Source: Patescibacteria group bacterium (lineage in GTDB: Bacteria > Patescibacteriota > UBA1384 > DATEAH01). From it: 64,000 bases of DNA. The notes under the pieces were generated by a model. The model had not been told where the DNA came from and did no database searches. It was given only the letters and a program-made list of their open reading frames with translations. The position numbers and the translations under genes were made by a program. Below, piece after piece: positions 3,309-56,699 of this stretch (the first letter of the stretch is position 1; every line of letters starts with the position of its first letter). The DNA is taken from positions 27,770 to 91,769 of the forward strand of contig DATEAH010000006.1 of assembly GCA_035288465.1 (NCBI GenBank). Direction: 5' to 3'.

Positions 3309-3438
3309 CAGTATTACCGCGCCCCGCCATGCAAAACAGTTTGCTGGCGTTGCGGGCGGGTTCATGCACGACTCATGATGCGTTTGGTCGTCGGGCTGCA
3401 CAACCTATTTTTATATAATTTATGGAGTGCAGGAGGGG
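3309..3438 (+). promoter_or_regulatory. Conserved structured leader element, copy A (candidate cis-regulatory RNA) upstream of lepB
   Basis: About 130 nt, sharing conserved blocks with 16266..16387: cagtattaccgcgcc(c)cgcca, ggcgttgcgggcgggttcat, gggctgcacaacc, an AT-rich spacer, then ggagtgcaggagggg immediately 5' of the start codon. A 6-bp inverted repeat ctgcac/gtgcag flanks the AT-rich spacer. Confidence 0.5.
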
Positions 3439-3439
3439 T

Positions 3440-4051
3440 ATGCGCAATGTGATTCGACCGCGTCTATCATTAGAAAATAAAAGTTCTAAAAGCAAAATTT
3501 TTTATAGGTTAGCGCGGTTTTTTGATTTAAGCAAATGGGTTATTTTAATCGCGATTGTGATTTATTTAGGACATTTGTTTGTGGTGAGCATTTTTGCGGT
3601 TTCTGGGGCGAGCATGGAGCCAAATTTTCACGACAAAGAATATTTAATCGTCAATAAAACCTTTCGAATTATTGACCGAATTCAACGCGGTGATGTGGCG
3701 ATTTTTAAATTCCCCGGCGATCCAAACGAGCTTTATATTAAAAGAATAATTGGTTTGCCGGGCGATACGATTGAAATCAAAGATAAAGCGGTTTGGGTTA
3801 ATGGTCGGAAAATGATTGAAATGTATTTAACTAAAGATATGGTCACGGATAAATTATCAAATCAGCAAAAATGGCATCTGGGTGCCAATGAATATTTTGT
3901 GATGGGTGACAATCGCGAAAATTCGAACGACTCGCGGGTTTGGGGCAGTTTACCCAAAGAAAATATTGTTGGCATTGCTAATTTCGTAATTTTGCCAGCA
4001 GCGATGGCTGGCAAGATTCCTATCCCTGATTATTATACGAGCTCAAAATAA
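3440..4051 (+). CDS. lepB: Signal peptidase I
   Basis: S26 motifs GASMEPNF and GDNRENSNDSRVWG, with an N-terminal TM. The track ORF starts at 3422, but the ATG at 3440 directly follows the GGAGGGG SD and is the more likely start. Confidence 0.85.
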   Translation: MRNVIRPRLSLENKSSKSKIFYRLARFFDLSKWVILIAIVIYLGHLFVVSIFAVSGASMEPNFHDKEYLIVNKTFRIIDRIQRGDVAIFKFPGDPNELYIKRIIGLPGDTIEIKDKAVWVNGRKMIEMYLTKDMVTDKLSNQQKWHLGANEYFVMGDNRENSNDSRVWGSLPKENIVGIANFVILPAAMAGKIPIPDYYTSSK

Positions 4052-4054
4052 AAT

Positions 4055-23589: not shown

Positions 23590-23619
23590 AATAATACAAT
23601 AAAAAGAAAAGGAATAAAT

Positions 23620-24309: not shown

Positions 24310-24319
24310 GAGGAAGAAA

Positions 24320-31639: not shown

Positions 31640-31640
31640 A

Positions 31641-31772: not shown

Positions 31773-31803
31773 ATCCTGCCTTCGGCGGGACTAAGGAGGG
31801 GTT

Positions 31804-33759: not shown

Positions 33760-33766
33760 GGGCAAA

Positions 33767-39055: not shown

Positions 39056-39357
39056 TTTTTTATTCTCCTTTTTAGGGTTGGTTCTAAATCTTATTTATCC
39101 ACAGGTTTATGTTTAATTTAAAAGTAATTAAATAAATTAGTAGTAATAATAAGGGTTAAAAAAACAGTGGATAACTAGGTTTTTAAATAAGAATTAAGGT
39201 GGATAATATGAGGACAATTTAAACCTAAATTATGGATAAGATGAGGATAATTTGTGGATAAGATTATCCATAATATTTTTTATTTTTTAGAGTTTGATAT
39301 TAATTTTTATTTAAGTGTTAAATCTTCCACAACTTATCCACAAGTTCTGTGGATAAG
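39056..39357. promoter_or_regulatory. DnaA-box cluster (oriC candidate) between dnaN and dnaA
   Basis: Perfect or near-perfect TTATCCACA/TGTGGATAA boxes at 39095-39103, 39166-39175, 39198-39206, 39231-39239, 39253-39261, 39265-39273, 39334-39342 and 39348-39356, in AT-rich DNA. Confidence 0.7.
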
Positions 39358-40704
39358 TTACATATAAAGCTTTTCTTTAATTAAAATGATTTCTTTATGA
39401 ATATTATGACCGGTCCTGATTTGTTTTTCGATTTTTTCACAACCGTACATAATTGTGGTGTGATCTTTTTTGCCGATTTTTATAGCAATCTGTGGATAAG
39501 AGTATTGTAATTCTTGTCTTAATAAATACATGGCGATTTGTCTAGGGATTACAATTTGTTTATTTCTTCTGGCACCGAGCAAATCTTCAACTTGAACATT
39601 ATAAAAACCTGCCACTGTATCCACAATCTTATCAAAAGATAAACTTTTATTTTTTGAAGAAATTGAATTGCCCAAAGCGGCCATGGCCACATCAACCGAG
39701 GGTTTGAGATTGTAAAATTGAACATGGGCAATTAATTTATTAAGCGCGCCTTCAAGTTCTCGGATATTTTGTTGGACATTGCGGGCAATAAAATCTGCGA
39801 CGTCTTCGGTAATTTCGAATTCCTTTTCCTGAGCCTTATTTTGTAAAATTGCTCTTCTCATTTCAAAATCTGGCGCTTGAATGTCGCAGGTCAAACCCCA
39901 TTCAAATCTAGACTTTAACCTATTTCCGAGAGTGGGAATTTCTTTGGGCGGCCGGTCAGAAGTGAGGATAATTTGTTTTTTGGCTTGGTGTAAAGCGTTA
40001 AAAGTATGGAAAAATTCTTCTTGGGTACCTTCTTTGCCAGCAATAAACTGAATATCATCAACTAACAAGGCATCGATTAAACGATATTTATTTTTAAATT
40101 GCTCGGCTTTGCCCCGGCCTTCTCGGACAGCCAAAATAAAATCATTGGTAAATTTTTCACAAGGTACATATAAAATTTTATAATCTGGATATCTTTTGGT
40201 AATTTCATTTTTAACAGCTTGAATTAAATGGGTTTTACCCAAACCAGAACCTCCCCAAATAAATAAAGGATTGTAGGTCAAGCCTGGTTTTTCTGCCACA
40301 GACAACGAGGCAGCATGAGCTAATTTATTACTATTGCCAACCACAAAGTTTCCAAAGGTATGATAATCAGCGCTCATTTTAGTTTCTTTGGCTTGGCTAA
40401 CCGGGCTTGGTTGAATCGCGTCTAATTTGATTTCAGGGATTTGGGTCTCATTCGATCTTTTTGAAGCAACTCTGTAATCTACGGTTTGAATTTGAGGCAT
40501 TAATTTTTTAAGTGCGGATAAAATTTCCAGATTATATTTTTTCTTAAGCCATTCAATGTAGAAATTGCTCGGTACGCCAATTACTGCACGATCATCATCA
40601 ATACTGTAAATAAAAGTATTTTTAAACCAGGTGCTAAAATTGGCCTTGGAAAGGTTTACTTCTAATTCACCGAGAACCGCCCTCCACATTGTATCTGGGT
40701 TCAT
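39358..40704 (-). CDS. dnaA: Chromosomal replication initiator DnaA
   Basis: AAA+ GGSGLGKTHL, a box VII region and the C-terminal DNA-binding domain signature. Confidence 0.95.
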   Translation of the reverse strand: MNPDTMWRAVLGELEVNLSKANFSTWFKNTFIYSIDDDRAVIGVPSNFYIEWLKKKYNLEILSALKKLMPQIQTVDYRVASKRSNETQIPEIKLDAIQPSPVSQAKETKMSADYHTFGNFVVGNSNKLAHAASLSVAEKPGLTYNPLFIWGGSGLGKTHLIQAVKNEITKRYPDYKILYVPCEKFTNDFILAVREGRGKAEQFKNKYRLIDALLVDDIQFIAGKEGTQEEFFHTFNALHQAKKQIILTSDRPPKEIPTLGNRLKSRFEWGLTCDIQAPDFEMRRAILQNKAQEKEFEITEDVADFIARNVQQNIRELEGALNKLIAHVQFYNLKPSVDVAMAALGNSISSKNKSLSFDKIVDTVAGFYNVQVEDLLGARRNKQIVIPRQIAMYLLRQELQYSYPQIAIKIGKKDHTTIMYGCEKIEKQIRTGHNIHKEIILIKEKLYM

Positions 40705-40860
40705 AAGCCTCCAAAAAAGAAATCCACAATTTCCATTTTAATGCTGTTAAATTTAGAGCTTATTGTTTTTGTTTTTGAAATTTATCCACAGGACATTACT
40801 ACTTATACACATCTTAACAAATTTATCCACAGGTGGCAAATTTATAGTCCTAATTATTTA
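40705..40860. promoter_or_regulatory. Second DnaA-box cluster upstream of dnaA (divergent dnaA/rpmH region)
   Basis: TTATCCACA at 40782-40790 and 40823-40831, plus a partial AATCCACAA at 40723-40731. Confidence 0.6.
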
Positions 40861-41716: not shown

Positions 41717-42460
41717 ATGAGTTCAATTTGGCATGAGGTTTTATATCGTCCCTTGTTCAATGTTTTAATATTAATTTATCATTATTTGCCAGACATTGGG
41801 GTGGCGATTATTATTTTAACGATCATTATTCGTTTGATTTTGTATCCTTCCCAATCCAAGGCTTTGCGTGCAGCTAAGAAAATGCGCGATCTCCAGCCTG
41901 AAATTAATAAGATTCAAGAGAAATACAAGCACGACAAACAAAAGCAATCTAAAGCGATGATGGAATTTTGGCAAACCCACCGTGTTAACCCCCTATCAAG
42001 CTGTTTGGGACAAATCATCCAGATTCCAATTTTGATCGCCCTGTATCAAGTTTTTAGTACTGGTTTGGATATTTCAAGGCTAACAGAATTATATTCATTT
42101 ATTCCCAAACCCACCACCATTGATCCAACCCTTTTTGGTTTAATTAATTTGGCTGAGCCAAATCGTTATATTTTACCAGTAATTGCTGGTATTGCCCAAT
42201 TTTTCCAGATGAAAATTATGATGCCGCCTGCCCTGCCCAGCCCAGCAAGTGCGAAAAAATCAAACCTTCCCAACACTCAGGAAATGATATCCAAACAAAT
42301 GATTTATTTTATGCCAGTGATGATTGTTTTCTTTGCCGCCAGCTTGCCGGCCGCCCTGCCTTTATACTGGATTGTGATTTCGATTATTGCCATTATCCAG
42401 CAAGTTTTAATTAATCGTGAAACCACCCAGAAAAAAGTGACAGTAAGGATTAAAAAATAA
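41717..42460 (+). CDS. yidC: Membrane protein insertase YidC (short form)
   Basis: A 247 aa protein with about 5 TM helices, conserved context and a C-terminal basic tail. Confidence 0.75.
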   Translation: MSSIWHEVLYRPLFNVLILIYHYLPDIGVAIIILTIIIRLILYPSQSKALRAAKKMRDLQPEINKIQEKYKHDKQKQSKAMMEFWQTHRVNPLSSCLGQIIQIPILIALYQVFSTGLDISRLTELYSFIPKPTTIDPTLFGLINLAEPNRYILPVIAGIAQFFQMKIMMPPALPSPASAKKSNLPNTQEMISKQMIYFMPVMIVFFAASLPAALPLYWIVISIIAIIQQVLINRETTQKKVTVRIKK

Positions 42461-43450: not shown

Positions 43451-45172
43451 GTGTTGGACTCAAAAAATCAAAACAATCAGTTGCCATATGATTCGGCTTC
43501 ATCGTCCCCAAAACCTGCACCCAAGGCTGGGCTTGAGCGGGTTTTTTCTGAATATATTAAAGATCAACAAGAAACCGCCACCGAAAATCGAGCTAAGAGT
43601 TTCGGCCTTTCCTATATTAACCTAATTGGTTATCCGATAAGCAATCAAACTATGCAATTAATTCCCGAAGAAATTGCCCAAAAATATCGAGTCGTCGCCT
43701 TTATGAAAGCTGAGGGGCAATTACGAGTCGCTTGCCAAGATCCAGAAAACGAACAGATGAAAATTGAATTAGCCCAAGTTGCGAAAAATTTAGACTTACA
43801 AATAATTTATACCTTGACTTCAAAAAATAGCCTAGATTATGCTTTAAAAAATTACCAATTTATTCCCAAACTCACGACGAGTGAAATTAAAGTTTCGCAG
43901 GCAGAGGAAAAAGATTTTGCCAAAGAGATTAAAAACCTTTCTGATTTGAAGGAAAAAATTAGCCAGGTGCCGATAACTAAGATTTTTGAAATTATATTAA
44001 CTGGAGCGATTAAATCTAAAGCTTCTGATGTTCATGTTGAGCCTGGGCAAAATGGCATGAAAATGCGTTACCGAATTGATGGAGTTTTGCAGGACGTGGT
44101 GAGTTTGCCTACCGAAGTTTATCGGGCTTTGTTATCTCGAGTAAAATATTTAGCCAAAATGAAGCTGGACATTAATAATAAACCGCAAAATGGCCGTTTT
44201 TCAATTACAGCCCTAGACGTGCCCATTGATTTAAGGGTTTCAACCTTGCCCACGATTTATGGCGAAAATGTGGTGATGAGACTTTTGGAGCACGGGAAAG
44301 GATTTTTGAGTTTGGAACAGCTTGATTTTTCCCCTGAAATTAAAAAGATGGTGGCTGAGGCGATTAAAAAACCATCAGGGATGATATTGAACACTGGGCC
44401 AACCGGTTCTGGCAAAACCACGACGCTTTATGCAATTTTAGAGACCTTGAATAAGCCCGGAGTAAAAATAATTACTTTGGAAGATCCGGTTGAATATCGT
44501 TTGCCGGGAATTAATCAGACTCAAGTGAATGTGGAGTTGGGCTTGGATTTTGCCAGCGGTTTGAAATCAGCTTTAAGGCAAGATCCAGACGTGCTGATGG
44601 TGGGTGAAATTCGCGATTTAGAAACCGCCGAAATCGCTTTGCAAGCGGCAATGACTGGACATTTGGTGCTATCAACCTTGCATACCAATAACGCGCCAAC
44701 CGCGATGCCTCGCTTGATTGATTTGGGCATTAAACCCTTTTTATTGCCCGGATCTGTGGATTTGGTAATGGCGCAGCGCTTGGTGAGAAAAATTTGTAAA
44801 AAATGCAAAGAAGAATATAAACCCACAGCTGAAGTAATGGAAAAGATTAAAAAAGCGCTCACAAGGATTAATCCGTCTCCTGTTAAGGCTGGAGCCGAGA
44901 CAGGTACAAAAATCCCCTCCAAACTTTTCAGGGGGAGGGGATGTCCTGTTTGCAATCAGACTGGTTATATGGGTAGAACGCCGATTGCCGAAGGCTTAAA
45001 ACCTAATGCAAAAATTGAAAAATTAGTGATTAATCGGGCGACCATATCAGAACTATATCGAACCGCAGTTGAATTAGGAATGGTTACTATGGAACAAGAC
45101 GGATTGCGAAAAGCTTTGGCGGGCGTAACTACAATTGAAGAAGTCTGGCGAGTTACCGCGAGTGAGACATAA
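43451..45172 (+). CDS. pilB: Type IV pilus assembly ATPase PilB (GspE family)
   Basis: Walker A GPTGSGKTTTLYA, GEIRDLETAEIALQAAMTGHLVLSTLHTNNA, and a tetracysteine motif CKKCKEE...CPVCNQTG. Confidence 0.9.
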   Translation: MLDSKNQNNQLPYDSASSSPKPAPKAGLERVFSEYIKDQQETATENRAKSFGLSYINLIGYPISNQTMQLIPEEIAQKYRVVAFMKAEGQLRVACQDPENEQMKIELAQVAKNLDLQIIYTLTSKNSLDYALKNYQFIPKLTTSEIKVSQAEEKDFAKEIKNLSDLKEKISQVPITKIFEIILTGAIKSKASDVHVEPGQNGMKMRYRIDGVLQDVVSLPTEVYRALLSRVKYLAKMKLDINNKPQNGRFSITALDVPIDLRVSTLPTIYGENVVMRLLEHGKGFLSLEQLDFSPEIKKMVAEAIKKPSGMILNTGPTGSGKTTTLYAILETLNKPGVKIITLEDPVEYRLPGINQTQVNVELGLDFASGLKSALRQDPDVLMVGEIRDLETAEIALQAAMTGHLVLSTLHTNNAPTAMPRLIDLGIKPFLLPGSVDLVMAQRLVRKICKKCKEEYKPTAEVMEKIKKALTRINPSPVKAGAETGTKIPSKLFRGRGCPVCNQTGYMGRTPIAEGLKPNAKIEKLVINRATISELYRTAVELGMVTMEQDGLRKALAGVTTIEEVWRVTASET

Positions 45173-45176: not shown

Positions 45177-45563
45177 TTAAGTCAAAAACCTTGAAAAAAC
45201 AAAGGTGATAATTAAATAAGATGCAAAAATTACCACCAAACCGATAATCGCATTTAGTATGCCAGTGCGAGCTTCGGTAGCCGTCTCAGCATTGCCCCCA
45301 GCCGTGATGTACTTGTAACCAGCTAAAATCAAATAGATTAATGCAACTACACCAGCCGCTATCAGAAGGAGACGAATAGCATTACTAACTATACTTTGAA
45401 GGCTTCCTCTGAAAAATTCTCCCCGTGGAACCCAATTTTTCCATGCTTCAGAGGCACCGGAAGTAGGAACTGGAACAATGTCGGCTGAGGCGCTTGCCGG
45501 AGTCAACAACAGCAAAGAGGTGGCGAAAAGATACTGAATGATTTTTGAAAAAAACTTTTTCAT
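45177..45563 (-). CDS. VirB2/TrbC-type (T4SS) pilin-like small membrane protein, paralog a
   Basis: A signal peptide, then two hydrophobic helices flanking the conserved loop AGYKYITAGGNAETATEARTGILNAIIGLVV. Confidence 0.45.
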   Translation of the reverse strand: MKKFFSKIIQYLFATSLLLLTPASASADIVPVPTSGASEAWKNWVPRGEFFRGSLQSIVSNAIRLLLIAAGVVALIYLILAGYKYITAGGNAETATEARTGILNAIIGLVVIFASYLIITFVFSRFLT

Positions 45564-45649
45564 TTTCCTCTCCTTAATTTAAATAATCAGTTATTAATTA
45601 TATTGTAAGATGATTATTTTTTTTGTCAATTTTTAGTCTTAATTAAAAT

Positions 45650-46006
45650 TTACGGCGCCTGTGGCGGTAAACCACCAATAATCGAACCCCAAGCAAAATT
45701 AATAATTGCCAGCGCTGCAAAACAAATCACCAAACCAATTACTGCCCATAAAATGGTGCTTTTCGCCTGAGCGATTGCATCTGGATTGCCGGCAGAAATG
45801 ATATATTTATATCCGCCGATAATAATATAAATAATCGCAATTGCACCAGCGAGGGTTAAAGCAACATTAATGACATTGCCAATCAAATAAACCACATCCC
45901 ATAAATCATATTCAGTACCACTACCGCCAGCATGGGGAGCTTGAAGAATTGGAAACATGGCAATTTTTGTAGATTGAATTGTCGCAAAAGTTATTAAACT
46001 ATTCAT
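45650..46006 (-). CDS. T4SS pilin-like protein, paralog b
   Basis: The same GGYKYIISAGNPDAIAQAKSTILWAVIGLVI motif architecture. Confidence 0.45.
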   Translation of the reverse strand: MNSLITFATIQSTKIAMFPILQAPHAGGSGTEYDLWDVVYLIGNVINVALTLAGAIAIIYIIIGGYKYIISAGNPDAIAQAKSTILWAVIGLVICFAALAIINFAWGSIIGGLPPQAP

Positions 46007-46008
46007 AA

Positions 46009-46602
46009 TTATTTCAAAATAAAATTAACAATTAAATATGACGAAAAAGCAATAATTATTCCGATGACCGCGCCTAAAATGGCATTTTTACCTTTATTGG
46101 CAATTTCGGGATTTCCAGCCGAAGTGATGTATAAATAACCACCATAAATTAAGACCACGGTTGCGACTACGCCAATTAAAACCAAGAGAATTGTAATAAT
46201 ATTCTGTACCACATCCTCCCATCTTCCTGGAGCATAATTGGGAATATTAATTGGCTCTAAGGGCTCTGAGTCTGATTGGGCTTGGGGAACCGTACCTCCA
46301 ACGTTTGGATTTTGTTTGAGCCAATCGTTGAAAACATCTTCAAAATACCAACCAGTTGGCAATTCAGCAGTGCCGCTTGAGCGGTAAAAAACTTTTTTAC
46401 CATCGTACATTCCATATGGAATGGTAGTTTTGTCTGGCTGAGGTTGTTTCCATTGATCGGTTACTTTGGGGTCATTGGCATCGGTTGAAACCGGCACAGG
46501 TTTTATTGCTATATCAGCTAAGGCTGGTGTCGAAATTACAAAAAAGATTCCTAAAATCAAAACCGCCCAAATTGTAAAAATATATTTTTTAAATACCATC
46601 AT
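46009..46602 (-). CDS. T4SS pilin-like protein, paralog c, with an extra roughly 110 aa N-terminal extracytoplasmic region
   Basis: GGYLYITSAGNPEIANKGKNAILGAVIGIIIAF. It has an N-terminal TM. Confidence 0.45.
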   Translation of the reverse strand: MMVFKKYIFTIWAVLILGIFFVISTPALADIAIKPVPVSTDANDPKVTDQWKQPQPDKTTIPYGMYDGKKVFYRSSGTAELPTGWYFEDVFNDWLKQNPNVGGTVPQAQSDSEPLEPINIPNYAPGRWEDVVQNIITILLVLIGVVATVVLIYGGYLYITSAGNPEIANKGKNAILGAVIGIIIAFSSYLIVNFILK

Positions 46603-46609
46603 ATTTTCC

Positions 46610-46915
46610 TTATTGTACCAAGTTCCCGCTTATTGAGGAAAGAATTAAATAACCTAAGCCCAAAACCAACAAACTGATAATTGTCCCGAAAATAATATCT
46701 TTGGCTTCGGTTAAGGCGTCTGGATTACCCTGACTACTCATATATTTATAGCCAGCATAAATTAACATTAAAATTGCCAGTCCGACCGCTAAATAACTCA
46801 CAAATTCATAAATACAGCCAATATATACACTTAAAACCACATCCATGCCTTGTTCGCAAAGACCACCTCGGGTTGGAATGGTGACGCCAATTACAGCTGG
46901 CAAAAAAGTATACAT
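46610..46915 (-). CDS. T4SS pilin-like protein, paralog d
   Basis: AGYKYMSSQGNPDALTEAKDIIFGTIISLLV. Confidence 0.45.
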   Translation of the reverse strand: MYTFLPAVIGVTIPTRGGLCEQGMDVVLSVYIGCIYEFVSYLAVGLAILMLIYAGYKYMSSQGNPDALTEAKDIIFGTIISLLVLGLGYLILSSISGNLVQ

Positions 46916-46939: not shown

Positions 46940-48346
46940 TTATGGAGCGTCAGTTTCTTTATTGGCCCACAGGGTTTTGATATTTTCCACGGCCGCATCA
47001 ATGGCTTTTTGTGCAGGTTGTGATTTAGCAGTAACCGCGGTAATCATACTATTAAAAATTTGATCAATTTTATTTGGCGCCTGCCCCTTGTACCAGCTCT
47101 GGGCAGTAGAAATTTGGTTTTTAAACACTGAAATATCAACATCGCCAAGATACTCTGAAACCAAATCAAGCCTCGAGGTTGGCCGGCCAGTAATTTCTAG
47201 ATATTTATATTGAATCATATTATCTTTGTCGGTAGCAAATTTTAGAAAATCCCAAGCCACAACCGAATTTTGAGAATTTTTTGAAACCACATTTGGCCAA
47301 TAACTGGCATAATTTATTCTATTATCCGATCCTTTGACTTGTGGGATTGGTGCAAAATCATATTCTAAATCTGGGGCAGAATTTTTGATTTGTTTAATTT
47401 GATAGGAATAATTGATCATCATCGCGGTTTTATTAGCGATAAAAGCTTCAGTGGAAGTAGCTTGGGAAGCATTCCAAGAATATGTTTCTTTAGCGGGTTT
47501 GGCAAAACTGGTGTAAAAATCTAAAGCCGAGGTGCCAGGATAATAGATTTGGTCATTGCTTTTTTCAATTGATAAATTAAGGGTTGGGGTGTTTTTATCT
47601 TCAGAAACCATTTTGGTACCATTTTGGAGCATTAATAACGATAAAATATCTTGTGAAGCCTCAACATTATTTGAGGTACCTAAGGCAATGCCGGACTGGG
47701 CAATATTGGTACCATTTTTTGCGGTTAGTTTTTTAATTTGACCAATTAAATCTGTCCAATTTTCAGCCACCTTATCAATTCTTAATTTGTCGATTTGGTC
47801 TGAGGAAAGGTCTGCTTGTCGGCCCACAGAATAATTATAATTACCAATTAGGGTTTTATTGTAATATAAACCCAGAGTGTCGACATAAAAAGGAATCCCC
47901 CAAATTCGATTATCAGCAATTAAGTCTTGAGCTGCAACTGGCGCAAAGATTTTTTTGTAATCATCTGTAGACATATAATCTTCGGGCATGGGACTAAGTT
48001 TGTCTTCGTGTTTGGTCAGCCAATCATTTTTAATTTGGAATAAATCTGGACCTGAGCCGTTGGCAATAGCATTAATTAATTCGGTTTCATACCCTGAGGG
48101 ATTTTTTTTGACTAAATTAATAGTGGCATTGTCATGAGCTTGTTTATATGCCTGAACAGTTGGCGTGAGAGCAGCTTCGTCGTCGTATAAATACCACCAG
48201 GTTAGCGTGACTGGGCCTGAAGGGTAGGCGGTTTTTGAGGTGTTGGTAGGTTGGTCTGAGCCCTTTTTAAAAACAACCGCGACCACAATTAAAATCACGA
48301 TTAATAAAAAAATAATTATGCCGCCGATAATGAGTCCTTTTTTCAA
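46940..48346 (-). CDS. ABC transporter extracellular solute-binding protein (family 1, sugar-type), membrane-anchored
   Basis: TTG start, an N-terminal TM and a roughly 440 aa SBP-like domain. It is preceded on the minus strand by aaattatggagtgcaggaggggat (minimal copy D of the conserved leader 3' box, 48347-48368). Confidence 0.6.
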   Translation of the reverse strand: MKKGLIIGGIIIFLLIVILIVVAVVFKKGSDQPTNTSKTAYPSGPVTLTWWYLYDDEAALTPTVQAYKQAHDNATINLVKKNPSGYETELINAIANGSGPDLFQIKNDWLTKHEDKLSPMPEDYMSTDDYKKIFAPVAAQDLIADNRIWGIPFYVDTLGLYYNKTLIGNYNYSVGRQADLSSDQIDKLRIDKVAENWTDLIGQIKKLTAKNGTNIAQSGIALGTSNNVEASQDILSLLMLQNGTKMVSEDKNTPTLNLSIEKSNDQIYYPGTSALDFYTSFAKPAKETYSWNASQATSTEAFIANKTAMMINYSYQIKQIKNSAPDLEYDFAPIPQVKGSDNRINYASYWPNVVSKNSQNSVVAWDFLKFATDKDNMIQYKYLEITGRPTSRLDLVSEYLGDVDISVFKNQISTAQSWYKGQAPNKIDQIFNSMITAVTAKSQPAQKAIDAAVENIKTLWANKETDAP

Positions 48347-48368: not shown

Positions 48369-49250
48369 TTAATGTTTGTTAATTTTCAACCCTTTTAAAT
48401 AAGCGCGAAAATCACCATTAATTTCGGGTCGCATTAAAGCAAAATCAACCACCGCTTTAAGATATTCGGTTTTATTGCCAGTATCGTAATATTTGCCACC
48501 TTCAATTTCTTTGGCATATATTTTATGATTTGGTCGTAATTTGTTAATCGCATCCACCAGCCAAATTTCACCACCTTTGCCAGGTTTAAGCTCGCGCAAG
48601 GCTTGAAAAATGTCTGGAGTTAAGATATAGGCGCCGTGCACGGCTAAATCTGAAGGGGCTTTATCTGGTTCGGGTTTTTCGATAATTTCTTCAATCTCAT
48701 AAAATTTGTCTTCAACTTCATTAACTTTGCCAATCCCATATTTGGATAAATTCTCTCGATTTTTGATTTTTACGGCCGAAATGATGATGTCTTGATATTT
48801 TTCATAAGCTTCAATCATTTGTTTCAGGCGCGGCTTTTTAGCATAAATAAATTCATCACCCCATAAAACCGCAAATGGTTCATTGCCAATAATCGGCTCA
48901 GCATTTAAAATCGGCGTGCCATTGCCGTAAGGTCCTTTTTGTCGAATATAGATAAAATTGGCTAATCGTGCGATACGTCTAATTTCTTCTAATTGTTCGG
49001 TTTTGCCGGCTTTTTCTAAGCGGTTTTCTAATTCAATACTGTGATCAAAATGATCTTCGATTGCCCGTTTGCTGTAGCCAGTGACAATGACAATATCTTC
49101 AATTCCAGAGTTGACCGCTTCCTCAACTACATACTGAATAATCGGTTTGTCAACTACCGGCAACATTTCTTTGGGAGAGGCCTTGGTCATCGGTAAAAAT
49201 CTTGTGCCAAAACCTGCTGCCGGGATGACAGCTTTTCTAATTTTTTTCAT
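48369..49250 (-). CDS. galU: UTP--glucose-1-phosphate uridylyltransferase
   Basis: AVIPAAGFGTRFLPMTKASPKEMLPVVDKPIIQY. Confidence 0.85.
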   Translation of the reverse strand: MKKIRKAVIPAAGFGTRFLPMTKASPKEMLPVVDKPIIQYVVEEAVNSGIEDIVIVTGYSKRAIEDHFDHSIELENRLEKAGKTEQLEEIRRIARLANFIYIRQKGPYGNGTPILNAEPIIGNEPFAVLWGDEFIYAKKPRLKQMIEAYEKYQDIIISAVKIKNRENLSKYGIGKVNEVEDKFYEIEEIIEKPEPDKAPSDLAVHGAYILTPDIFQALRELKPGKGGEIWLVDAINKLRPNHKIYAKEIEGGKYYDTGNKTEYLKAVVDFALMRPEINGDFRAYLKGLKINKH

Positions 49251-49370
49251 CTAATTTTACTCCGTCTTGATTAAATTATAATCTTTGTATTTTTAATTGT
49301 CAATTTAAATTGTTAGATAACAAAAATATCAACCCTATTGGGTTGATATTTTTAATAAGGAATTTTATGC

Positions 49371-49844
49371 TTATTCAGATTCGGTATCAACTTTAACAAT
49401 TTGGGTTTTACTTTTGGCTTCTTTGGGAACAATGATAGTTAAAACCCCATGTTTAAGAGTAGCTTTAGCTTTTTCTGGATCAACGCCGGTTGGTAAGGAA
49501 ACTTGTCTGGAAAATGTCCCCCAATAACATTCTTGAGCAAAATAATCTTCTGCTTTGACTTCAGCTTCTTGTTGTCGCGAACCTTTAACGGTGACGGTAT
49601 TATCAACGATGGAAACTTCTAAGTTTTCGGGTTTAACACCGGCAATAGGCGCCTTAATCACAATCGATTCCGCGGTTTGGTAAGCATCAAGCGCTAATTG
49701 GCCTTCGATTTCGGCCATCCACTCTTCTTTATTTTCAGGATTATCATCGGCTTTTTCACCGAAAATTTTAGAAACAGTTGGACTTTCTTTCGCCATCTTG
49801 CCCTCCTTTCCTGCCACAGCGGGAAAAATTGAAATCCTAAGCAC
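49371..49844 (-). CDS. Hsp20/alpha-crystallin small heat-shock protein
   Basis: ACD region ...VSLPTGVDPEKAKATLKHGVLTIIVPK at 157 aa. Confidence 0.85.
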   Translation of the reverse strand: MLRISIFPAVAGKEGKMAKESPTVSKIFGEKADDNPENKEEWMAEIEGQLALDAYQTAESIVIKAPIAGVKPENLEVSIVDNTVTVKGSRQQEAEVKAEDYFAQECYWGTFSRQVSLPTGVDPEKAKATLKHGVLTIIVPKEAKSKTQIVKVDTESE

Positions 49845-50035: not shown

Positions 50036-50725
50036 ATGTCAAATTTTAAAGAATTGTTTTATGATTTAATTTTTCCCAAAAAATGTATAGGCTGTGGAGC
50101 GGAAGGGAATTGGTTATGTCGGGATTGTTTTGAAAAAATTGTGATCGTGCGCCAGCCCTTTTGTCCCAATTGCCAAAAACTGACAAAATCTGGCCAATAT
50201 TGTTCAAGATGCCGGGTTCGGCAGTCTTTGACCGGAGTAATAATCGCGGCTCATTATGAAAACCCGCTCAAGGAAGCGATCCACAAATTTAAATATGAGA
50301 AATTGACTGAGTTGTCAGATCCTTTTTTGGAGATTCTGATTACTCGACTTGAAGCGGGATTTCCGGTCGGAAAATTGGTTTTGGTGCCGGTGCCGTTAAC
50401 CAAAAAAAGAGAATCGGAAAGAGGGTATAATCAAGCGGAAATTTTGGCAAATTTATTAGCCGAAGCTTTTGAAATTCCCACGATAAATAACTTATTGGTT
50501 AGGATTAAAGAAAAGCCGAGTCAGGTAAGCTTGAGAGGTGAAGAGCGGCGGAAAAATGTATTGGGGATTTTTGCGGTTCGGGGCGAGACGGCGAAAATTA
50601 AAAATAAAACAATTTTGTTGGTTGATGACGTGATGACTACTGGCGCGACCTTAAATGAATGTGCTCAGGTGCTTAAAAGCGCCGAGGCTAAAAATGTTTG
50701 GGGAGTAGTGATTGCTAAAGCCTGA
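50036..50725 (+). CDS. ComF-family phosphoribosyltransferase (competence protein ComFC-like)
   Basis: An N-terminal Cys4 (CIGCG...CRDC...CPNC...CSRC) and a PRTase motif ILLVDDVMTTGATL. Confidence 0.75.
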   Translation: MSNFKELFYDLIFPKKCIGCGAEGNWLCRDCFEKIVIVRQPFCPNCQKLTKSGQYCSRCRVRQSLTGVIIAAHYENPLKEAIHKFKYEKLTELSDPFLEILITRLEAGFPVGKLVLVPVPLTKKRESERGYNQAEILANLLAEAFEIPTINNLLVRIKEKPSQVSLRGEERRKNVLGIFAVRGETAKIKNKTILLVDDVMTTGATLNECAQVLKSAEAKNVWGVVIAKA

Positions 50726-51195: not shown

Positions 51196-52644
51196 TTATT
51201 TTTCAGCCCAGTCTTTGAAAAAACTAATACCCTGTTTTAAAAATGGCCAAAAATCTTTCGGATTTTTAACAAATTTTTTCATACTATGCAAAATATAGGT
51301 TGGCCTTAAGTAAAATTGTAAATAAGCTTTTTTGCGGAATTTCGCGAGATCTTCAACTGATAACTGCGGAGTCGAAATGATATTTTTTCCTTGTTCATAA
51401 TCCGCCCAGCTTTTAGCGGTGATCCAGCCTTTTTTAGCGGCTTCGTCGTGAAAGCGAGTCCCGGGATATGGAATAGCGGAATAAAATTGGACATAGTCTG
51501 GATTTATTTCCTTAACCAATTTCATGGTTTTTTTAATGGTTTGTTTGGTTTCGCCCGGCAAGCCAAAAATAATATAAGCGGCACTTTCAAGTTTGGCAGC
51601 CCTAGTCCATTTAAAAGCTTGCCTGATTTGCGCCAAAGTGATATTTTTGCCAACGCGGTTTAAAATCTTTTGAACACCTGATTCGACTCCATATGAGACA
51701 ACCTGGCAGCCGGTTTCTTTCATCGCTTTTAACATTTTAGGATTAATTCTGTCCACGCGCGAATTTGCCATCCAGCGAAATTTCAGCTTCCTTTTTTTAA
51801 TACCTTCACATAATCTAAAAACATAATTTCGGTCAAAAGTAAAAGAATCCGCCCAAAAAGTAATATCTTTAATTTTATAAACTTTGAGAATTTCTTCAAC
51901 TTCATCTAAGACATTTTTAACGCTCCTCATCCTAATTTTTGAGCCATAATATAGGCTGGCGGTGCAAAAACTACAATTATTTGGACAGCCGCGGGAGGTA
52001 ATGACTAAGGTATAGGGTCGGTTATAGACCGGCATTTTGTAGCGTCGATTTTTAATTAAGTCTCGAGCAGGAAAGGGTAAAAGATCTAAATTTTCGATAA
52101 AGGGCCGGTCCACATTGCTAATAAATGACGGGTTACTCTTAAAACTGAGCCCCTTAACCTTTTTCAAAGATTTTTTATCACGCAGGGAAAGCGCGAGCTC
52201 GAGCGAAGTCATTTCCGGTTCTCCTCTAATAATCGAATCCAGCGCAGTATCTTTTAGGGTTTTTAAAGGAAGGCTGGTGACATGAATGCCAATGGCGGTT
52301 AAGTGCGTCTTGGGCTGATTTTTTTTGACCTTGGCAATAAAAATTCGATCCCCATAATAGGTAACAGTGGCGAGATTTATAATAATTAAATTCGGTTGAA
52401 ATTTTTTAATCGCTCTAATTGCTTTTTTCGAGTCCAAATCTTCGGCCATTGAGTCTAAAACTTTAACCTCAATCCCATTTTCGCGCAAAAGGCCGGCAAT
52501 CGATGGCAGAGAAATCGGTACCATCAGATATTGAAAAGACGAAGCACGCTGTTCACATCGGCCTTCTCTAACATATTTTTCGTGATTTGGGCTAGGCGGA
52601 TTGACAATCATAACCTTCACATTATCCCCACTTTCAAAGATCAA
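51196..52644 (-). CDS. B12-binding radical SAM protein, paralog 1
   Basis: An N-terminal B12-binding-type domain, CxxxCxxC (RGCPNNCSFCTA) and IIFGLPGETKQT. It is paralogous to 54598..56037 over its full length. Confidence 0.8.
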   Translation of the reverse strand: MIFESGDNVKVMIVNPPSPNHEKYVREGRCEQRASSFQYLMVPISLPSIAGLLRENGIEVKVLDSMAEDLDSKKAIRAIKKFQPNLIIINLATVTYYGDRIFIAKVKKNQPKTHLTAIGIHVTSLPLKTLKDTALDSIIRGEPEMTSLELALSLRDKKSLKKVKGLSFKSNPSFISNVDRPFIENLDLLPFPARDLIKNRRYKMPVYNRPYTLVITSRGCPNNCSFCTASLYYGSKIRMRSVKNVLDEVEEILKVYKIKDITFWADSFTFDRNYVFRLCEGIKKRKLKFRWMANSRVDRINPKMLKAMKETGCQVVSYGVESGVQKILNRVGKNITLAQIRQAFKWTRAAKLESAAYIIFGLPGETKQTIKKTMKLVKEINPDYVQFYSAIPYPGTRFHDEAAKKGWITAKSWADYEQGKNIISTPQLSVEDLAKFRKKAYLQFYLRPTYILHSMKKFVKNPKDFWPFLKQGISFFKDWAEK

Positions 52645-52658
52645 ATCAATAAAATGAT

Positions 52659-53072
52659 TTAGATATGATTAAATTTATCATCTTTCGCCAGAAAAATAAA
52701 CCTTTTTACTAACCAAAAATTAGTGACCGCCGCAGCAAATGTGGCGAATATTTTAGCAAAAAGATACCATAAATGAAAAAACTGTACCAATGACGCCAGA
52801 ATTAATAAATTAATTGCTAAACCAACGCTATGAGAAATAATATATTTTATAAACTGCTGAAAATATTTTTTTTCAGAATTAGCAAAAGTCCAAAATTTAT
52901 TCAAGCTAAAACTAATCCAAACTATCACCACAATTGAAATAATCGCTGCCAGCAAATAATGAAGATGGACAAATTCAACTAAAATATAAAGAAAAATGAA
53001 ATCCAATAAAGTCGCCAAACCCCCGACCATAATGTATTTTAAAAATTGTTTTGACATAATCATTTTTACCAT
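52659..53072 (-). CDS. GtrA-family small membrane protein (polyprenol-P-sugar flippase-like)
   Basis: A 137 aa protein with 4 TM helices, YIMVGGLATLLDFIFLYIL at the start and KRFIFL at the end, typical of the GtrA family. Confidence 0.65.
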   Translation of the reverse strand: MVKMIMSKQFLKYIMVGGLATLLDFIFLYILVEFVHLHYLLAAIISIVVIVWISFSLNKFWTFANSEKKYFQQFIKYIISHSVGLAINLLILASLVQFFHLWYLFAKIFATFAAAVTNFWLVKRFIFLAKDDKFNHI

Positions 53073-53776
53073 TTATTCCTTTGCCGATAAGCACTTATTA
53101 AAATAGCCATAAAAAGAGCAAAAAGCACCACTATAAAATAATAAAATATAATTACAATTTGATTCAAAATCACCCCGATAAAAACAACAATCCAAATGGT
53201 GCCAGAACGATACGATTCGGAAAACAAGAAGGCGATTATTTTTAAAAATTTTGGAAGATTTTTTAGACTTTCCTTTTTAATATTTTCAACATCTTTATTA
53301 AATAAGAGCTGATATCTGGGTAGGGTTCTGCCAAACATTCTTTGCAAAAAAATTACCAAGGCTAAATAAAAAAAGATATGATCATTATGCACTTGCCGAA
53401 AGTTGGCCCAGGCAAGCGCGAAAAAAACCAAACTTTCTTTGATGCTGTCAAGAGAAGTATCAAGTAAGGCGCCAAAGTGGCTGATTTTTTTAAAGCCTCG
53501 GGCAAGCTGGCCGTCAACACAATCAAAAATATAAGAAATAATTAAAATACCCGCCCCCAAAATCCTTTCTGATAAATTCCCGTAAGCGATCAAGCCGATT
53601 CCGATTAGGCCGACCCCAAAACCTAAAAAATTAACAAAAGTTGGTGATAAATTGATGCTGGCAAAACCAGGAGTGATCACGCTGGCAATCGGACGATAAA
53701 AAACCCGTTCGAAAAATGGGTAAAAGGGCTTGTGCATAATTTTAGCATTAAATTTTGGTTTATGATTTTTTTTCAT
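53066..53776 (-). CDS. CDP-alcohol phosphatidyltransferase family protein
   Basis: Motif DCVDGQLARGFKKISHFGALLDTSLDSIKE matches D-G-x2-A-R-x8-G-x3-D-x3-D. Confidence 0.7.
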   Translation of the reverse strand: MKKNHKPKFNAKIMHKPFYPFFERVFYRPIASVITPGFASINLSPTFVNFLGFGVGLIGIGLIAYGNLSERILGAGILIISYIFDCVDGQLARGFKKISHFGALLDTSLDSIKESLVFFALAWANFRQVHNDHIFFYLALVIFLQRMFGRTLPRYQLLFNKDVENIKKESLKNLPKFLKIIAFLFSESYRSGTIWIVVFIGVILNQIVIIFYYFIVVLFALFMAILISAYRQRNKW

Positions 53777-54575
53777 TTAAGCTTTTTGGCTTTTGACAAA
53801 TTACCACAAATTCACGGGTTTTGGCAGTATTTTTAGAAAAATAAACATCTGATAATTTTATTTTGGCAGACTGATAAATTTTTTTCACATAAAGCCAAGA
53901 AAAAACCCTCAGATAGGTTCTGGTTGCCCAGATTTTGATGGTATGCGGTAAATTTGCATAAATAATTCTAATTAATCTTTTCGGGTTCCAGCGGGAATAA
54001 AGTAACAATTTTCGACCACGAACATATTGGCCTAAAATTTTTTGGACCTCAAAATCAGCGAGCATTTTTTTTAAATCTTCTAAATAAAATTCATAAAAAT
54101 GAAAAGGGTAAAAAGGTTTAAAAGTGCCAGGGGAATAAACCGCTTTATTTGGAGTGGAAAGAATCAGTAAGCCCCCAGGTTTTAGAACTCGGTAAATTTC
54201 GTCGATGGCCTTAGAGTAATTTTTAACATGCTCAATGGTTTCAAACATAGATACTAAATCAAAATAATTATTAGGAAAATCAAGATTGGTTAAGTCGGCT
54301 CTTTTAAAAATTAAATTTTTCCGAAGATATTTAGATTGGCAATACTGGATTGATTCGGCGACTATGTCAATTCCATAAACTTTTTTAGCGCCAGACTTAG
54401 CTAAAATATTGGCGCCGTAACCTGCTCCGCAACCAGCGTCTAAGATAATTTTATTTTGAGCATATTTGGTGGCCAATTGATAACGAGAAATGGCTAAACC
54501 ATAAATATCTTGCAAAAACTTTGCCTGGGGCATAATTGAGCCCTCGAGTCTGGGCATTAAATTGTCGGTGGGCAT
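53760..54575 (-). CDS. Class I SAM-dependent methyltransferase
   Basis: ILDAGCGAGYGANIL (motif I) and VLKPGGLLILSTPN. Confidence 0.75.
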   Translation of the reverse strand: MPTDNLMPRLEGSIMPQAKFLQDIYGLAISRYQLATKYAQNKIILDAGCGAGYGANILAKSGAKKVYGIDIVAESIQYCQSKYLRKNLIFKRADLTNLDFPNNYFDLVSMFETIEHVKNYSKAIDEIYRVLKPGGLLILSTPNKAVYSPGTFKPFYPFHFYEFYLEDLKKMLADFEVQKILGQYVRGRKLLLYSRWNPKRLIRIIYANLPHTIKIWATRTYLRVFSWLYVKKIYQSAKIKLSDVYFSKNTAKTREFVVICQKPKSLNEKKS

Positions 54576-54597
54576 AATTGTCCTTTCTGCGGGATTT

Positions 54598-56037
54598 TTA
54601 ACCCCAATTTATCAAAAAACTTGAACCTTTCTGAATAAGATTGAGCAAGTCTCGGAATGATTTAACTTTTTTTAATTGACGGGAGATAAATTTTTTGCGT
54701 AAATAAAAACCAACCATTGCTTTTTTTCGAGCCTTAGCTAAGTCTTTTTGAGACAACTCTGAAGTATTAATTATCGCTCGGTTTAGTTCGTACTGGTTCC
54801 AATCAGAAGCCTTGATCCACCCCCTTTTGACGGCTAACTTGCGAAACTCAGTGCCGGGGAATGGAATGGCACAATAAAATTGGACATAATCTGGATCGAT
54901 TTTGCGAATAAATTTAATGGTTTGATTTATGGTTTTTTTTGTTTCACCGGGAAGACCAAAAATAACATGGGCTAAAGAATCTATATTCGCTTTTCGGGTT
55001 AGCTTAAAAGCTCTTTCAATCTGTTTTAAGGTGGTGCCCTTTTTGACATTATTTAATATTTTTTGAACGCCTGACTCAACTCCATATGCCACGCCCATAC
55101 AACCAGCCTTTTTCATGGCTTTGAGCATTTCCAGATCAACCGTATTGACTCGGGCATTGCACATCCAGTTAAATTTTATTTTTTTATCAATAATTTGTTG
55201 GCAAAGTTCAAGGACAAATTTTTTATCAAAAGTAAAAGTATCAGCCCACATGGTAATATCTTTGATCTGGTCGTGATTGACAATTTGCTCAATTTCCTCA
55301 ATCACTTTTTCGACTCGGCGGACTCTAAATTTATTCCCATAATATTGTTTGGCAGTACAAAAAGTACATTTATTGGGGCATCCACGAGCCGTAATTAGCA
55401 GTGTATAGGGTCGGTTGTAAACTGGCATAAAATAGCGGTCGTTTTTAAGGAGGTGGCGGGCGGCAAAAGGTAAAGAGTCTAAATCTTTAAAATGCGGCCT
55501 CGCCGGATTATTAATAATTTGCCCATCTTTTTTATAAGATAAACCGCGAATATTATCGAGTAATTTTTTATTTTTTAGGGCCGTGGCGAGTTTTAAAACC
55601 GTTATTTCCGGTTCGCCCCGTACCACTGAATCTAATCGGGTTTCTCGAAGCACTTTTTTAGGCAGGGTCGTGACATGGACGCCAATAGCGACCAGATGAG
55701 CATTGGGCAGTTTTTTCTTCAAGCGCATCACAAATTCTGCATCTGATTTATAAGTTAAGGTTGAAAAATTTATAATCACCAAATCAGGCTTAAATCTTGC
55801 CGAGGCCGAGATCGCACCGGAAAAATCAAAATCTTCGACCATAAAATCATAAATTTTAACTTCAAAATTATTCTGTAAAAGTAAACCGGCAGTCATAGGT
55901 AAAGAAATCGGCACCATCACATATTGAAATGAGGATAGGCGCTGCTCACACCTGCCTTCTCTAATTACTTTTGGGCCATTTAATGGGGGCGGATTGATAA
56001 GTAAAATTTTCAAGATCTTCTCCATAATATTTGCCAA
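54598..56037 (-). CDS. B12-binding radical SAM protein, paralog 2
   Basis: RGCPNKCTFCTA and VIFGLPGETKKT. The N-terminus LINPPPLNGPKVIREGRCEQRLSSFQYVMVPISLP parallels paralog 1. Confidence 0.8.
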   Translation of the reverse strand: MANIMEKILKILLINPPPLNGPKVIREGRCEQRLSSFQYVMVPISLPMTAGLLLQNNFEVKIYDFMVEDFDFSGAISASARFKPDLVIINFSTLTYKSDAEFVMRLKKKLPNAHLVAIGVHVTTLPKKVLRETRLDSVVRGEPEITVLKLATALKNKKLLDNIRGLSYKKDGQIINNPARPHFKDLDSLPFAARHLLKNDRYFMPVYNRPYTLLITARGCPNKCTFCTAKQYYGNKFRVRRVEKVIEEIEQIVNHDQIKDITMWADTFTFDKKFVLELCQQIIDKKIKFNWMCNARVNTVDLEMLKAMKKAGCMGVAYGVESGVQKILNNVKKGTTLKQIERAFKLTRKANIDSLAHVIFGLPGETKKTINQTIKFIRKIDPDYVQFYCAIPFPGTEFRKLAVKRGWIKASDWNQYELNRAIINTSELSQKDLAKARKKAMVGFYLRKKFISRQLKKVKSFRDLLNLIQKGSSFLINWG

Positions 56038-56699
56038 CGTTTTTTAAATAAAAACAATAAATTTGGGATGCCATCGCGCATACGACGGAGTTTGGAATTA
56101 CCAATGCGATCTCGATAATTGATATGATACTCTCCGTATTTAATTTTAGGGTGTAATAAAGCTTCCATTTTGATTTCTTCAGAAAAAGACATTTTATTGG
56201 AAAAGGGGTGAATTTTTTTTAAAATTGAGCGTCGAAATACCCACATGCCGGTTTGGGAATCTTCGACCGGTTTTAGGGTTAGTGAATTCATCGTGAGGGT
56301 TAATATTAGATTACCTAAACGGTTTGGCCAAGGCATGGCGGATTTATATTTTAAGGGAAAACGATTTCCAGCTACAAAATCAAGATTATTTTTGAGCAAA
56401 TAATCAATCATTCGCCCAATTTCTTGCAAAGGATATGTGCAGTCAGCATCACTGGTAATAATAATGTTGCCCTTGGCTGACTTGATGCCTTTTTGGCAAG
56501 CGGCGCCATAACCTTGTTTTTTTTCGCGAATTACGGTCGCGCCGAGTTTGCGGGCAATGGGGGCGGTTTTATCAAAGGAATTATTATCAACCACCATAAT
56601 TTCATCAACCCATTTTGGGATGCTTTTGATAGTAAGGGGAATCGCTTTTTCCTCATTATAGCATGGAATCACCACAGAAATTTTATATTTTTTATACAT
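56010..56699 (-). CDS. Family 2 glycosyltransferase (polyprenol-phosphate sugar synthase / GtrB-like)
   Basis: ISVVIPCYNEEKAI, a DxD-type TSDAD and a size of 229 aa. Confidence 0.7.
   Translation of the reverse strand: MYKKYKISVVIPCYNEEKAIPLTIKSIPKWVDEIMVVDNNSFDKTAPIARKLGATVIREKKQGYGAACQKGIKSAKGNIIITSDADCTYPLQEIGRMIDYLLKNNLDFVAGNRFPLKYKSAMPWPNRLGNLILTLTMNSLTLKPVEDSQTGMWVFRRSILKKIHPFSNKMSFSEEIKMEALLHPKIKYGEYHINYRDRIGNSKLRRMRDGIPNLLFLFKKRWQILWRRS

Follow-up and report, generated by a model that had tools for sequence, protein, structure and literature searches.

What are four small membrane-protein genes doing in tandem beside the gene for a type IV pilus (T4P) assembly ATPase, on a chromosome segment that also encodes a type IV secretion system (T4SS)? 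This question is raised by a 64-kb stretch of DNA from a Patescibacteria group bacterium, hereafter the window, in which four consecutive minus-strand open reading frames (ORFs), labelled P1-P4, occupy positions 45177-46915. An earlier reading of the letters alone (the sequence-only reading) had described them as divergent T4SS-type, VirB2/TrbC-like pilin paralogs that might be variable pilus subunits or adhesins. We find that all four belong to a T4SS pilin family and that related loci keep them in a fixed order behind a solute-binding-protein (SBP) gene. We consider it probable, at roughly 60%, that P1-P4 are heterotypic subunits of a T4SS-dependent pilus or stalk for epibiotic life, encoded at the tail of a galU-SBP-pilin operon.

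Family, fold and N-termini of the four proteins

Read along the minus strand, P4 (46610..46915, 101 aa) holds array position 1, directly after the SBP gene, followed by P3 (46009..46602, 197 aa, with an N-terminal extension) at position 2, P2 (45650..46006, 118 aa) at position 3 and P1 (45177..45563, 128 aa) at position 4, the last. Their alignment contains a common C-terminal core of about 75 residues, and P2-P4 are 32-42% identical to P1. The core consists of two hydrophobic helices around a loop, (A/G)GY(K/L)Y(I/M)xxxGN(A/P)(E/D), and hydropathy (segments 57-84 and 98-127 in P1) agrees with this alignment and with the arrangement described by the sequence-only reading. A hidden Markov model (HMM) built from P1-P4 found no fifth copy among the 353 six-frame ORFs of the window.

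All four proteins exceed the gathering score (26.6 bits) of the Patescibacteria-type T4SS_pilin family, PF18895, which belongs to the VirB2/TrbC superfamily, with P1 at 40.2, P2 at 50.4, P3 at 41.6 and P4 at 33.2 bits, which upholds the earlier call of a T4SS-type pilin. Because every member scores 33-50 bits against that threshold, the array is not a chance feature and the four ORFs are real genes. Against PF04956 (TrbC/VirB2; gathering score 27.9 bits), P3 passes at 31.8 bits, and P2 (22.2), P4 (17.0) and P1 (13.9) fall below. On these profile scores PF18895 membership is solid, and VirB2/TrbC membership in the strict sense is borderline. Among curated families based on cultivated organisms, the nearest is NF045849, with a curated equivalog cut-off of 40 bits; it describes the Mbov_0395 family pilin-like conjugal transfer protein found on integrative and conjugative elements (ICEs) of Mycoplasma. 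P2 scores exactly 40.0 bits (E=2e-10), and P3 (29.6 bits, 4e-7), P1 (25.1 bits, 1e-5) and P4 (16.8 bits) lie below, a pattern that suggests a related family rather than an equivalog. The locus also falls within a published definition of a VirB2 array, namely at least two PF18895/PF04956 genes in tandem or one gene apart in a genome with VirB4 (PMC12102498): here four successive PF18895-positive genes, a Patescibacteria source and a VirB4-like ATPase (27085-28860).

Relatives are abundant, with at least 3423 family members from a profile search and 21248 representative proteins from phmmer at E <=0.001; all of the homologous-protein matches listed carry a precomputed PF18895 domain. P2 itself is identical to a protein that NCBI assigns to a metagenome-assembled genome of a Patescibacteria group bacterium, and at least 24 metagenome contigs encode it. 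In many relatives a single polypeptide contains 2-10 T4SS_pilin hairpins that follow one another in tandem with no stops between them. Examples of these fused "poly-pilins" are P0126 (555 aa, six hairpins), P0215 (966 aa, ten) and P0012-P0021; we found no mention of them in the available portions of the literature on these arrays.

AlphaFold2 (AF2) returned the helical hairpin expected of such pilins rather than a different fold. For P2, modelled from a 99-sequence alignment with a mean confidence (pLDDT) of 78.9, the hairpin spans helices 35-70 and 75-111 (block-mean pLDDT about 84-96); the hairpin recurs in P3, at 128-159 and 165-196. Each of P1-P4 is thus predicted to form a small helical hairpin in the inner membrane, its loop short and basic. 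We also aligned the family by hhalign to seven annotated VirB2/TrbC proteins of mating-pair-formation (MPF) type T taken from plasmids; the match was colinear, helix to helix, over 64 columns, and weak (probability 13.5%, pairwise E 0.0021). For Agrobacterium VirB2, our reference sequence was 99.2% identical to the real gene.

The sequence-only reading had assigned Sec-type N-termini to the whole array, which holds for two of the four proteins. Judged by a basic n-region, a hydrophobic core and an AxA site, P1 (MKKFF...ASASA, then D) and P3 (...TPALA, then D) carry classical Sec signal peptides. P2 and P4 have no recognisable signal peptide, their N-termini being short, uncharged and atypical, and most of their orthologs begin in the same way. 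In known systems VirB2/TraA propilins are processed by enzymes of the signal peptidase I class, and the LepB-type enzyme encoded at 3422..4051 (plus strand; PF10502 Peptidase_S26, E=2e-46) is by analogy a candidate for processing P1 and P3. For the leaderless hairpins P2 and P4, the membrane insertase YidC (41717..42460, plus strand; PF02096, E=3e-52) is likewise a candidate means of insertion.

The extra N-terminal domain noticed in one paralog and put at roughly 110 aa is that of P3, where about 100 aa (residues ~30-127) precede the core. Within it, between low-confidence linkers, AF2 predicts a beta-beta-beta-alpha module of about 60 aa (strands 63-66, 69-74 and 84-87, helix 88-97; pLDDT 65-80). 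Among 1.84 billion representative proteins the extension has one relative (P0125), the position-2 pilin of locus L088, in which the module is duplicated; a word-indexed search found no relative, and no Pfam domain matched. The module is missing from the position-2 genes of two further loci closely related to the window, L099 and L087, and the extension has no similarity to the 350-aa extension of the position-2 pilin in a Berkelbacteria locus (L007). In the VirB2/TraA pilus architecture an N-terminal appendage is expected on the outside of the filament, which by analogy makes an adhesin or tip role plausible for the P3 module. The earlier adhesin suggestion is therefore kept for this module and not for the other pilins.

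A block of galU, a solute-binding protein and the pilins

Immediately upstream of P4 lies a gene for a membrane-anchored, MalE-like SBP of family 1, the carbohydrate type (46940..48346, minus strand; PF01547 SBP_bac_1, E=8e-27, 95.5 bits against a gathering score of 26); its matches to GanS/MalE models and to sugar-binding proteins of solved structure are weak. It is preceded by galU, encoding UTP-glucose-1-phosphate uridylyltransferase (48369..49250, minus strand; TIGR01099, 346 bits, above cut-off), the first gene of the block. The spacing of these genes is tight: P4 begins 24 nt past the SBP stop with the Shine-Dalgarno (SD) sequence AAAGGAAAA, P3 and P1 also have SD sequences, that of P1 (AAGGAGAGG) being the strongest of the array, and P2, which has none, starts 2 nt past the P3 stop, a junction that suggests translational coupling. 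Two promoter-like sites were found on the minus strand as pattern matches to the sigma-70 consensus. One, 25 nt upstream of galU (49275..49303; TTGACA-17-TATAAT, 12/12 matches), is a candidate promoter for a galU-SBP-P4-P3-P2(-P1) transcript; the other, near-consensus site falls between P2 and P1, about 39 nt upstream of where P1 starts (45602..45629; TTGACA-16-TACAAT, 11/12 matches). From the SD sequences, the P3/P2 and SBP/P4 spacings, the promoter-like sites and the recurrent adjacency of SBP and pilin genes described below, galU, the SBP gene and the four pilin genes are probably co-transcribed as one block, with the array as its distal part.

This adjacency was examined by scanning metagenome contigs with an alignment of four SBPs, which left 80 loci (31-61% SBP identity), 68 of them evaluable with at least 400 nt downstream. 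Pilin genes stand directly beside the SBP gene in 66 of the 68, with pilin ORFs directly downstream on the same strand in 62 and directly upstream on the same strand in a further 4. As measured from the end of the SBP ORF, the opening of the first pilin ORF usually falls between about -31 and +50 nt, and the two genes overlap in L007 and L179. Where at least 2.5 kb of downstream sequence was available (39 loci), the number of pilins after the SBP was most often four (10 loci), five (7) or three (7); five loci had none, three each had six, two or seven, and one had a single pilin. Of the 80 loci, at least 42 have galU directly upstream of the SBP gene. Because one SBP subfamily served as the seed, these counts give no share of all arrays that are SBP-linked. 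As a rough control, pilins occurred within 8 kb in 2 of 19 loci from named Patescibacteria retrieved by pilB, plus one locus labelled "bacterium"; among pilin-seeded loci outside the window's own clade, 1 of 7 was SBP-linked.

Several features of the SBP bear on what it might do here. It is tethered by a plain transmembrane (TM) anchor in the window and by a lipobox in L007, and a bindosome-like arrangement, in which the SBP would carry a class III signal, was ruled out on this basis. The scanned window ORFs of at least 120 aa yielded neither an ABC permease nor an ATPase partner. Our literature search, whose coverage was incomplete so that an earlier mention is possible, found no paper on the SBP-pilin link. 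We tentatively propose, with the odds still against it, that the galU-SBP-pilin block is an undescribed module of many non-Saccharibacteria Patescibacteria in which a MalE-like SBP cooperates with a heteromeric VirB2-like pilus or stalk. If so, the SBP could serve a T4SS-derived conduit for uptake or attachment as the part that recognises substrates or host glycans, and the module would be the first concrete handle on the role of the essential, enigmatic T4SS of Patescibacteria; the near-constant linkage, which spans dozens of divergent metagenomic lineages, offers a testable clue to the purpose of that system.

Subunit types, assembly and alternative explanations

Are the paralogs interchangeable variants or distinct parts? 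Over 10-20 kb that take in the array, the window is 99.98-100% identical to six contigs recovered from different metagenomes, so that strain-level diversification is not visible among them and the population is clonal. (Where strain contigs seemed to differ in having a GIY-YIG gene, the difference was one of gene calling; the DNA is identical.) Three relatives with PilB 65-73% identical to that of the window (L099, L088 and L087) have the same four pilin types in the same order, each position with its own ortholog at 46-67% identity. Position 1 (P4) is the most conserved pilin, at 66-67% to these three counterparts and 63-67% when L090 is included, with the motif IGV-xIP...C...YIGCIYEF and two cysteines (C20 and C34) kept in close orthologs and not in L007. 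Position 2 (the P3 core, 47-57%) has a variable N-terminal extension, and position 3 (P2, 46-63%) carries FP-ILxxP...EYxLW. Position 4 (P1, 52-59%) has a GGYQYVTAGGNAE loop and in most cases a signal peptide, which is present in L099, L088b and L087 and absent from the L088 duplicate, L088a. The flanking SBP (57-61%) and Hsp20 (54-62%) diverge at a similar pace, and GalU is 78-83% identical; the pilins are thus not hypervariable, and no repeats or recombination cassettes were seen in the array. The order extends to the distant Berkelbacteria locus L007, whose PilB, at 46% identity, was the best match of a pilB-seeded genome scan: pilB is followed on the opposite strand by four pilins, the SBP gene, galU and hsp20, and then by comF, and the second pilin is again the long one (450 aa).

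Because each position has orthologs with position-specific motifs and the strain contigs are identical, the comparison points to four fixed, differentiated subunit types rather than to interchangeable antigenic variants, and the "variable pilus subunits" of the sequence-only reading find no support. Among the four, P1 is a candidate major subunit, since it has its own promoter-like site, the best SD sequence and a signal peptide in most orthologs; P4, P3 and P2 would then be candidate minor or tip subunits. If the paralogs are fixed types, the pilus or stalk would be a heteromer, unlike the model of antigenic or host-range variation in the literature.

Candidate machinery for assembling such a structure is at hand. 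Encoded on the plus strand, 15-20 kb from the array, are PrgI/VirB3-like (25180-25686), TrsD-like (26137-26916, which also matches the Mycoplasma ICE VirB4 model) and VirB4-like (27085-28860) proteins and a VirB1-like SLT+M23 hydrolase (29350-30543), all recognised by Pfam/NCBIfam. PrgI and TrsD mark this T4SS core as the monoderm MPF-FATA type, and it presumably handles the pilins; LepB and YidC are encoded in the window as well. A link between such pilins and a T4SS is supported by six pilin-seeded, Saccharibacteria-type loci, in which VirB4, TraC-like, PrgI and VirB6 genes on one strand adjoin a PF18895 pilin array on the other, followed in five of the six by hsp20, comF and one more pilin (in L180 the contig ends past the first pilin). 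In locus L056, pilB, comF, hsp20, pilins, PrgI, TrsD and VirB4 stand together. We hypothesize that P1-P4 would enter the membrane through Sec/YidC, with signal peptidase I stripping the Sec leader from P1 and P3, and that the T4SS across the replication origin (PrgI/VirB3, TrsD, VirB4 and the VirB1-like hydrolase) would extract and polymerise them. The outcome may be a heteromeric pilus or stalk at the host-cell contact site, with P3 showing its lineage-specific N-terminal module on the outside.

A number of observations weigh against this hypothesis. We know of no pilus that has been seen for any member of the family. The array is not contiguous with the T4SS core, as oriC and housekeeping genes separate it from VirB4, about 16 kb away, and VirB4 was never encountered within the up-to-6-kb flanks of the SBP-seeded loci. 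Sequence ties to experimentally characterised pilins are weak, consisting of the hhalign probability given above and no pilin match when the family profile HMM was compared with PDB sequences, and Foldseek returned only generic helical hairpins, the fold being too simple to discriminate. Recognisable leaders are lacking from P2 and P4, and the major and minor assignments draw on promoter and SD patterns only.

An alternative role is one in which the hairpins are non-filamentous parts of a T4SS channel or stalk, or membrane-resident assembly factors, and the paralogs form a short heteromeric conduit. The NF045849 protein of the Mycoplasma ICE is called "pilin-like", with no pilus known there; the MPF-FATA class to which the window's core belongs has been reported without pili (PMC12102498); and most Gram-negative T4SSs need pilin-like subunits even where no pilus is made (PMC12857230). 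We nevertheless regard this as unlikely, as the secreted module of P3 and the large extensions among relatives (the 450-aa protein of L007, and 278-280 aa in L094) suggest surface display, and four to seven differentiated subunits look too many for a short stalk. Quite unlikely in our judgement, too, is a surface capture or uptake device in which the SBP is the pilins' main partner and the T4SS a secondary one or none; such pilins could hold or display the SBP, or form a membrane conduit for host-derived sugars. The adjacency in 66 of 68 loci across 31-61% SBP identity, the tight spacing and occasional gene overlap, the lack of an ABC partner in the ORFs scanned and the absence of VirB4 from the SBP flanks all speak for such a device, and reviews speculate that the T4SS or its pilus takes up host molecules (PMC12857230, PMC11665869). 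Yet the SBP is absent from all six Saccharibacteria-type loci sampled, where the pilins sit inside the T4SS cluster. Gene adjacency alone is no proof of a physical or functional pairing, the SBP is tethered in the ordinary monoderm way with no pilin-like signal, and the linkage comes from an SBP-seeded sample, outside the window's clade reaching one pilin-seeded locus in seven.

The evidence on fixed types tells against interchangeable major subunits serving antigenic or host-range variation, a model to which the "variable pilus subunits" of the sequence-only reading correspond and which the literature also suggests. The within-array divergence, an array size of 1-7 among relatives, the extra position-4 copy of L088 and the analogy drawn with VirB2 paralogs of Bartonella and Anaplasma (PMC12102498) would fit that model, but identical strain contigs, a distinct ortholog with its own motifs at each position, and pilins that evolve no faster than the SBP and Hsp20, with no cassettes in sight, make it highly doubtful. 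A further alternative takes its cue from pilB, which encodes a T4P/type II secretion assembly ATPase (43451..45172, plus strand; PF00437 T2SSE, E=1e-122, and MshEN) and lies tail to tail with the array, the stop codons of P1 and pilB being 4 nt apart. The adjacency noted by the sequence-only reading is real, and it recurs after the array in 6 of the 39 SBP-seeded loci with at least 2.5 kb downstream (L099 among them), in L088 and the distant L007, and probably in L087. The two are nonetheless convergent and cannot share a transcript, most related loci lack the arrangement, and the SBP partner is far more widely kept. No other T4P gene was found in the window, and the class III prepilin motif (G, cleavage, then F/M-x-x-x-E) is absent from P1-P4 and from all 353 six-frame ORFs. 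A hairpin is also not the single long N-terminal helix with globular head of a type IV pilin, and it is T4SS pilins that the family search matched. On the missing signal and the fold a type IV pilin identity was excluded, as the sequence-only reading had also held, and we find it scarcely credible that P1-P4 are T4P subunits or pseudopilins driven by PilB. Heterotypic subunits of a T4SS-dependent pilus or stalk thus remain our preferred explanation.

Chromosomal neighbourhood and known systems

The array and the VirB4 cluster lie on opposite sides of the replication origin, as had been proposed. The oriC region (39095..40831) is marked by DnaA-box clusters in the dnaA-dnaN spacer (39095-39356, nine boxes) and upstream of dnaA (40782-40831, three boxes), the whole window having 34 boxes with at most one mismatch where 17 were expected; dnaA (39358-40704, minus strand) and dnaN were identified by Pfam. 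To the right of the origin follow rpmH-rnpA-yidD-yidC-jag, tRNA-Ser, pilB, P1-P4, the SBP gene, galU, hsp20 (49371-49844, minus strand) and a comF-like phosphoribosyltransferase gene (50036-50725, plus strand), the last two also identified by Pfam. The hsp20-comF pair stands beside pilin arrays in L169, L170, L171, L181, L182, L056 (9683-13436) and L019 (3082-5363) as well, flanking arrays in very different Patescibacteria lineages and in both T4SS-internal and SBP-linked arrangements. There are at least two conserved array contexts, most with the hsp20-comF pair alongside, and the depth of this synteny across lineages suggests an ancestral neighbourhood comprising the T4SS core, pilins, hsp20 and comF, with pilB nearby. 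In L087, the pilB next to the array (2400-4176, minus strand) is split into three ORFs of 136, 387 and 84 aa, and may be a pseudogene or reflect an assembly or frameshift error.

Around the T4SS core we observed three plus-strand paralogs of PF05635, the four-helix-bundle "23S rRNA-intervening sequence protein": one just upstream of the cluster (19287-19673) and two inside it, overlapping the PrgI end (25676-26050) and directly after VirB4 (28908-29273). They are 34-47% identical to one another, and a recent duplication was rejected on this identity. No template/variable repeat pairs like those of diversity-generating retroelements were found near them; no reverse transcriptase search was made. 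Large ORFs of 392, 590, 398, 875, 229, 256 and 361 aa without a Pfam/NCBIfam match, and one of 899 aa with sub-threshold Pfam matches only, lie in 60984-63935 (minus strand), 19737-25090 and 30554-36466 (both plus strand); the literature leads one to expect VirB6-like and VirB8-like components, and these may be among the ORFs near the T4SS core, the 875-aa and 899-aa ones above all. Elsewhere in the window, 51196-59322 (minus strand) has the look of a locus that modifies cell-envelope lipids or glycans: it holds genes for two B12-binding radical SAM paralogs (51196-52644 and 54598-56037), GtrA-like, CDP-alcohol phosphatidyltransferase, methyltransferase and glycosyltransferase genes and one for a large membrane protein related to PTPS. 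At 101-1596 on the minus strand, a gene for an N6/N4 DNA methylase (101-931) is paired with one for a restriction endonuclease of the BsaWI family (928-1596), the two making up a type II restriction-modification pair.

Known systems offer several points of comparison. The genetic or functional coupling of an SBP to a conjugation or pilus-type machine has analogies, without family membership, in PrgZ of pCF10, a pheromone-binding OppA homolog on a conjugative plasmid and a family 5 peptide binder; in ChvE of Agrobacterium, a sugar-binding protein that signals to VirA and is unlinked to virB; and in the archaeal bindosome (Bas), where sugar-binding proteins are assembled by a PilB-like ATPase and small pilin-like proteins. 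Bas resembles the window in placing small pilin-like proteins and an ATPase of the PilB family beside sugar-binding proteins. Its signals are of class III (type IV pilin-like), whereas neither the pilins nor the SBP carry such signals here.

The TrbC/VirB2 family (PF04956), including Agrobacterium VirB2 and F TraA, shares with P1-P4 a small hairpin of two helices and a short loop, about 70 residues long, and P3 passes its gathering score; removal of an N-terminal leader by signal peptidase I, as in some members, and dependence on a VirB4 ATPase would be further common features. It differs in that three of the four proteins fall below that score and the hhalign match is weak; the genes here are not beside virB3/virB4, the host is a monoderm, and several paralogs take the place of one major pilin plus VirB5. 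The array pilins show no sign of cyclisation or acetylation. The Mbov_0395/MMCAP2_0565 family (NF045849) is similar in that its 80-residue hairpin profile matches P1-P4 end to end and its host has a monoderm MPF-FATA T4SS like the core in the window. Only P2 reaches its cut-off, however, and the Mycoplasma gene is single-copy on a mobile element with a relaxase, whereas P1-P4 are chromosomal, multi-copy and apparently not part of an ICE.

The nearest counterparts are the VirB2 arrays of Patescibacteria themselves. A search of 3035 Patescibacteria genomes with the same Pfam models recovered 441 arrays of 2-11 VirB2-like genes, with a mean within-array identity of 25%, a relaxase usually absent and the T4SS often near dnaA; their paralogs were likened to those of Bartonella and Anaplasma, and host-range versatility was suggested (Quinonero-Coronel et al. 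2025, PMC12102498). In Southlakia epibionticum, the pilin series that forms part of the T4SS cluster is essential (Wang et al. 2023, PMC10633639); it comprises six VirB2-like pilins, whose possible pilus a review calls "remarkable" (PMC12857230), and the role of the Patescibacteria T4SS has been described as "completely unknown" (PMC11665869). The array of the window is a further example of this published group, which includes those of S. epibionticum and the TM7x "Sec secreted array", and by itself changes little: it has the same PF18895 profile with or without PF04956, divergent tandem paralogs, the same phylum, and a monoderm-type T4SS without a nearby relaxase and close to dnaA/oriC. It differs in being split from the T4SS core by the oriC block and pilB, and in being joined to a galU-SBP block that the sampled Saccharibacteria-type loci do not have. 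Moreover, its positional orthology favours fixed subunit types over the host-range versatility suggested for the published arrays.

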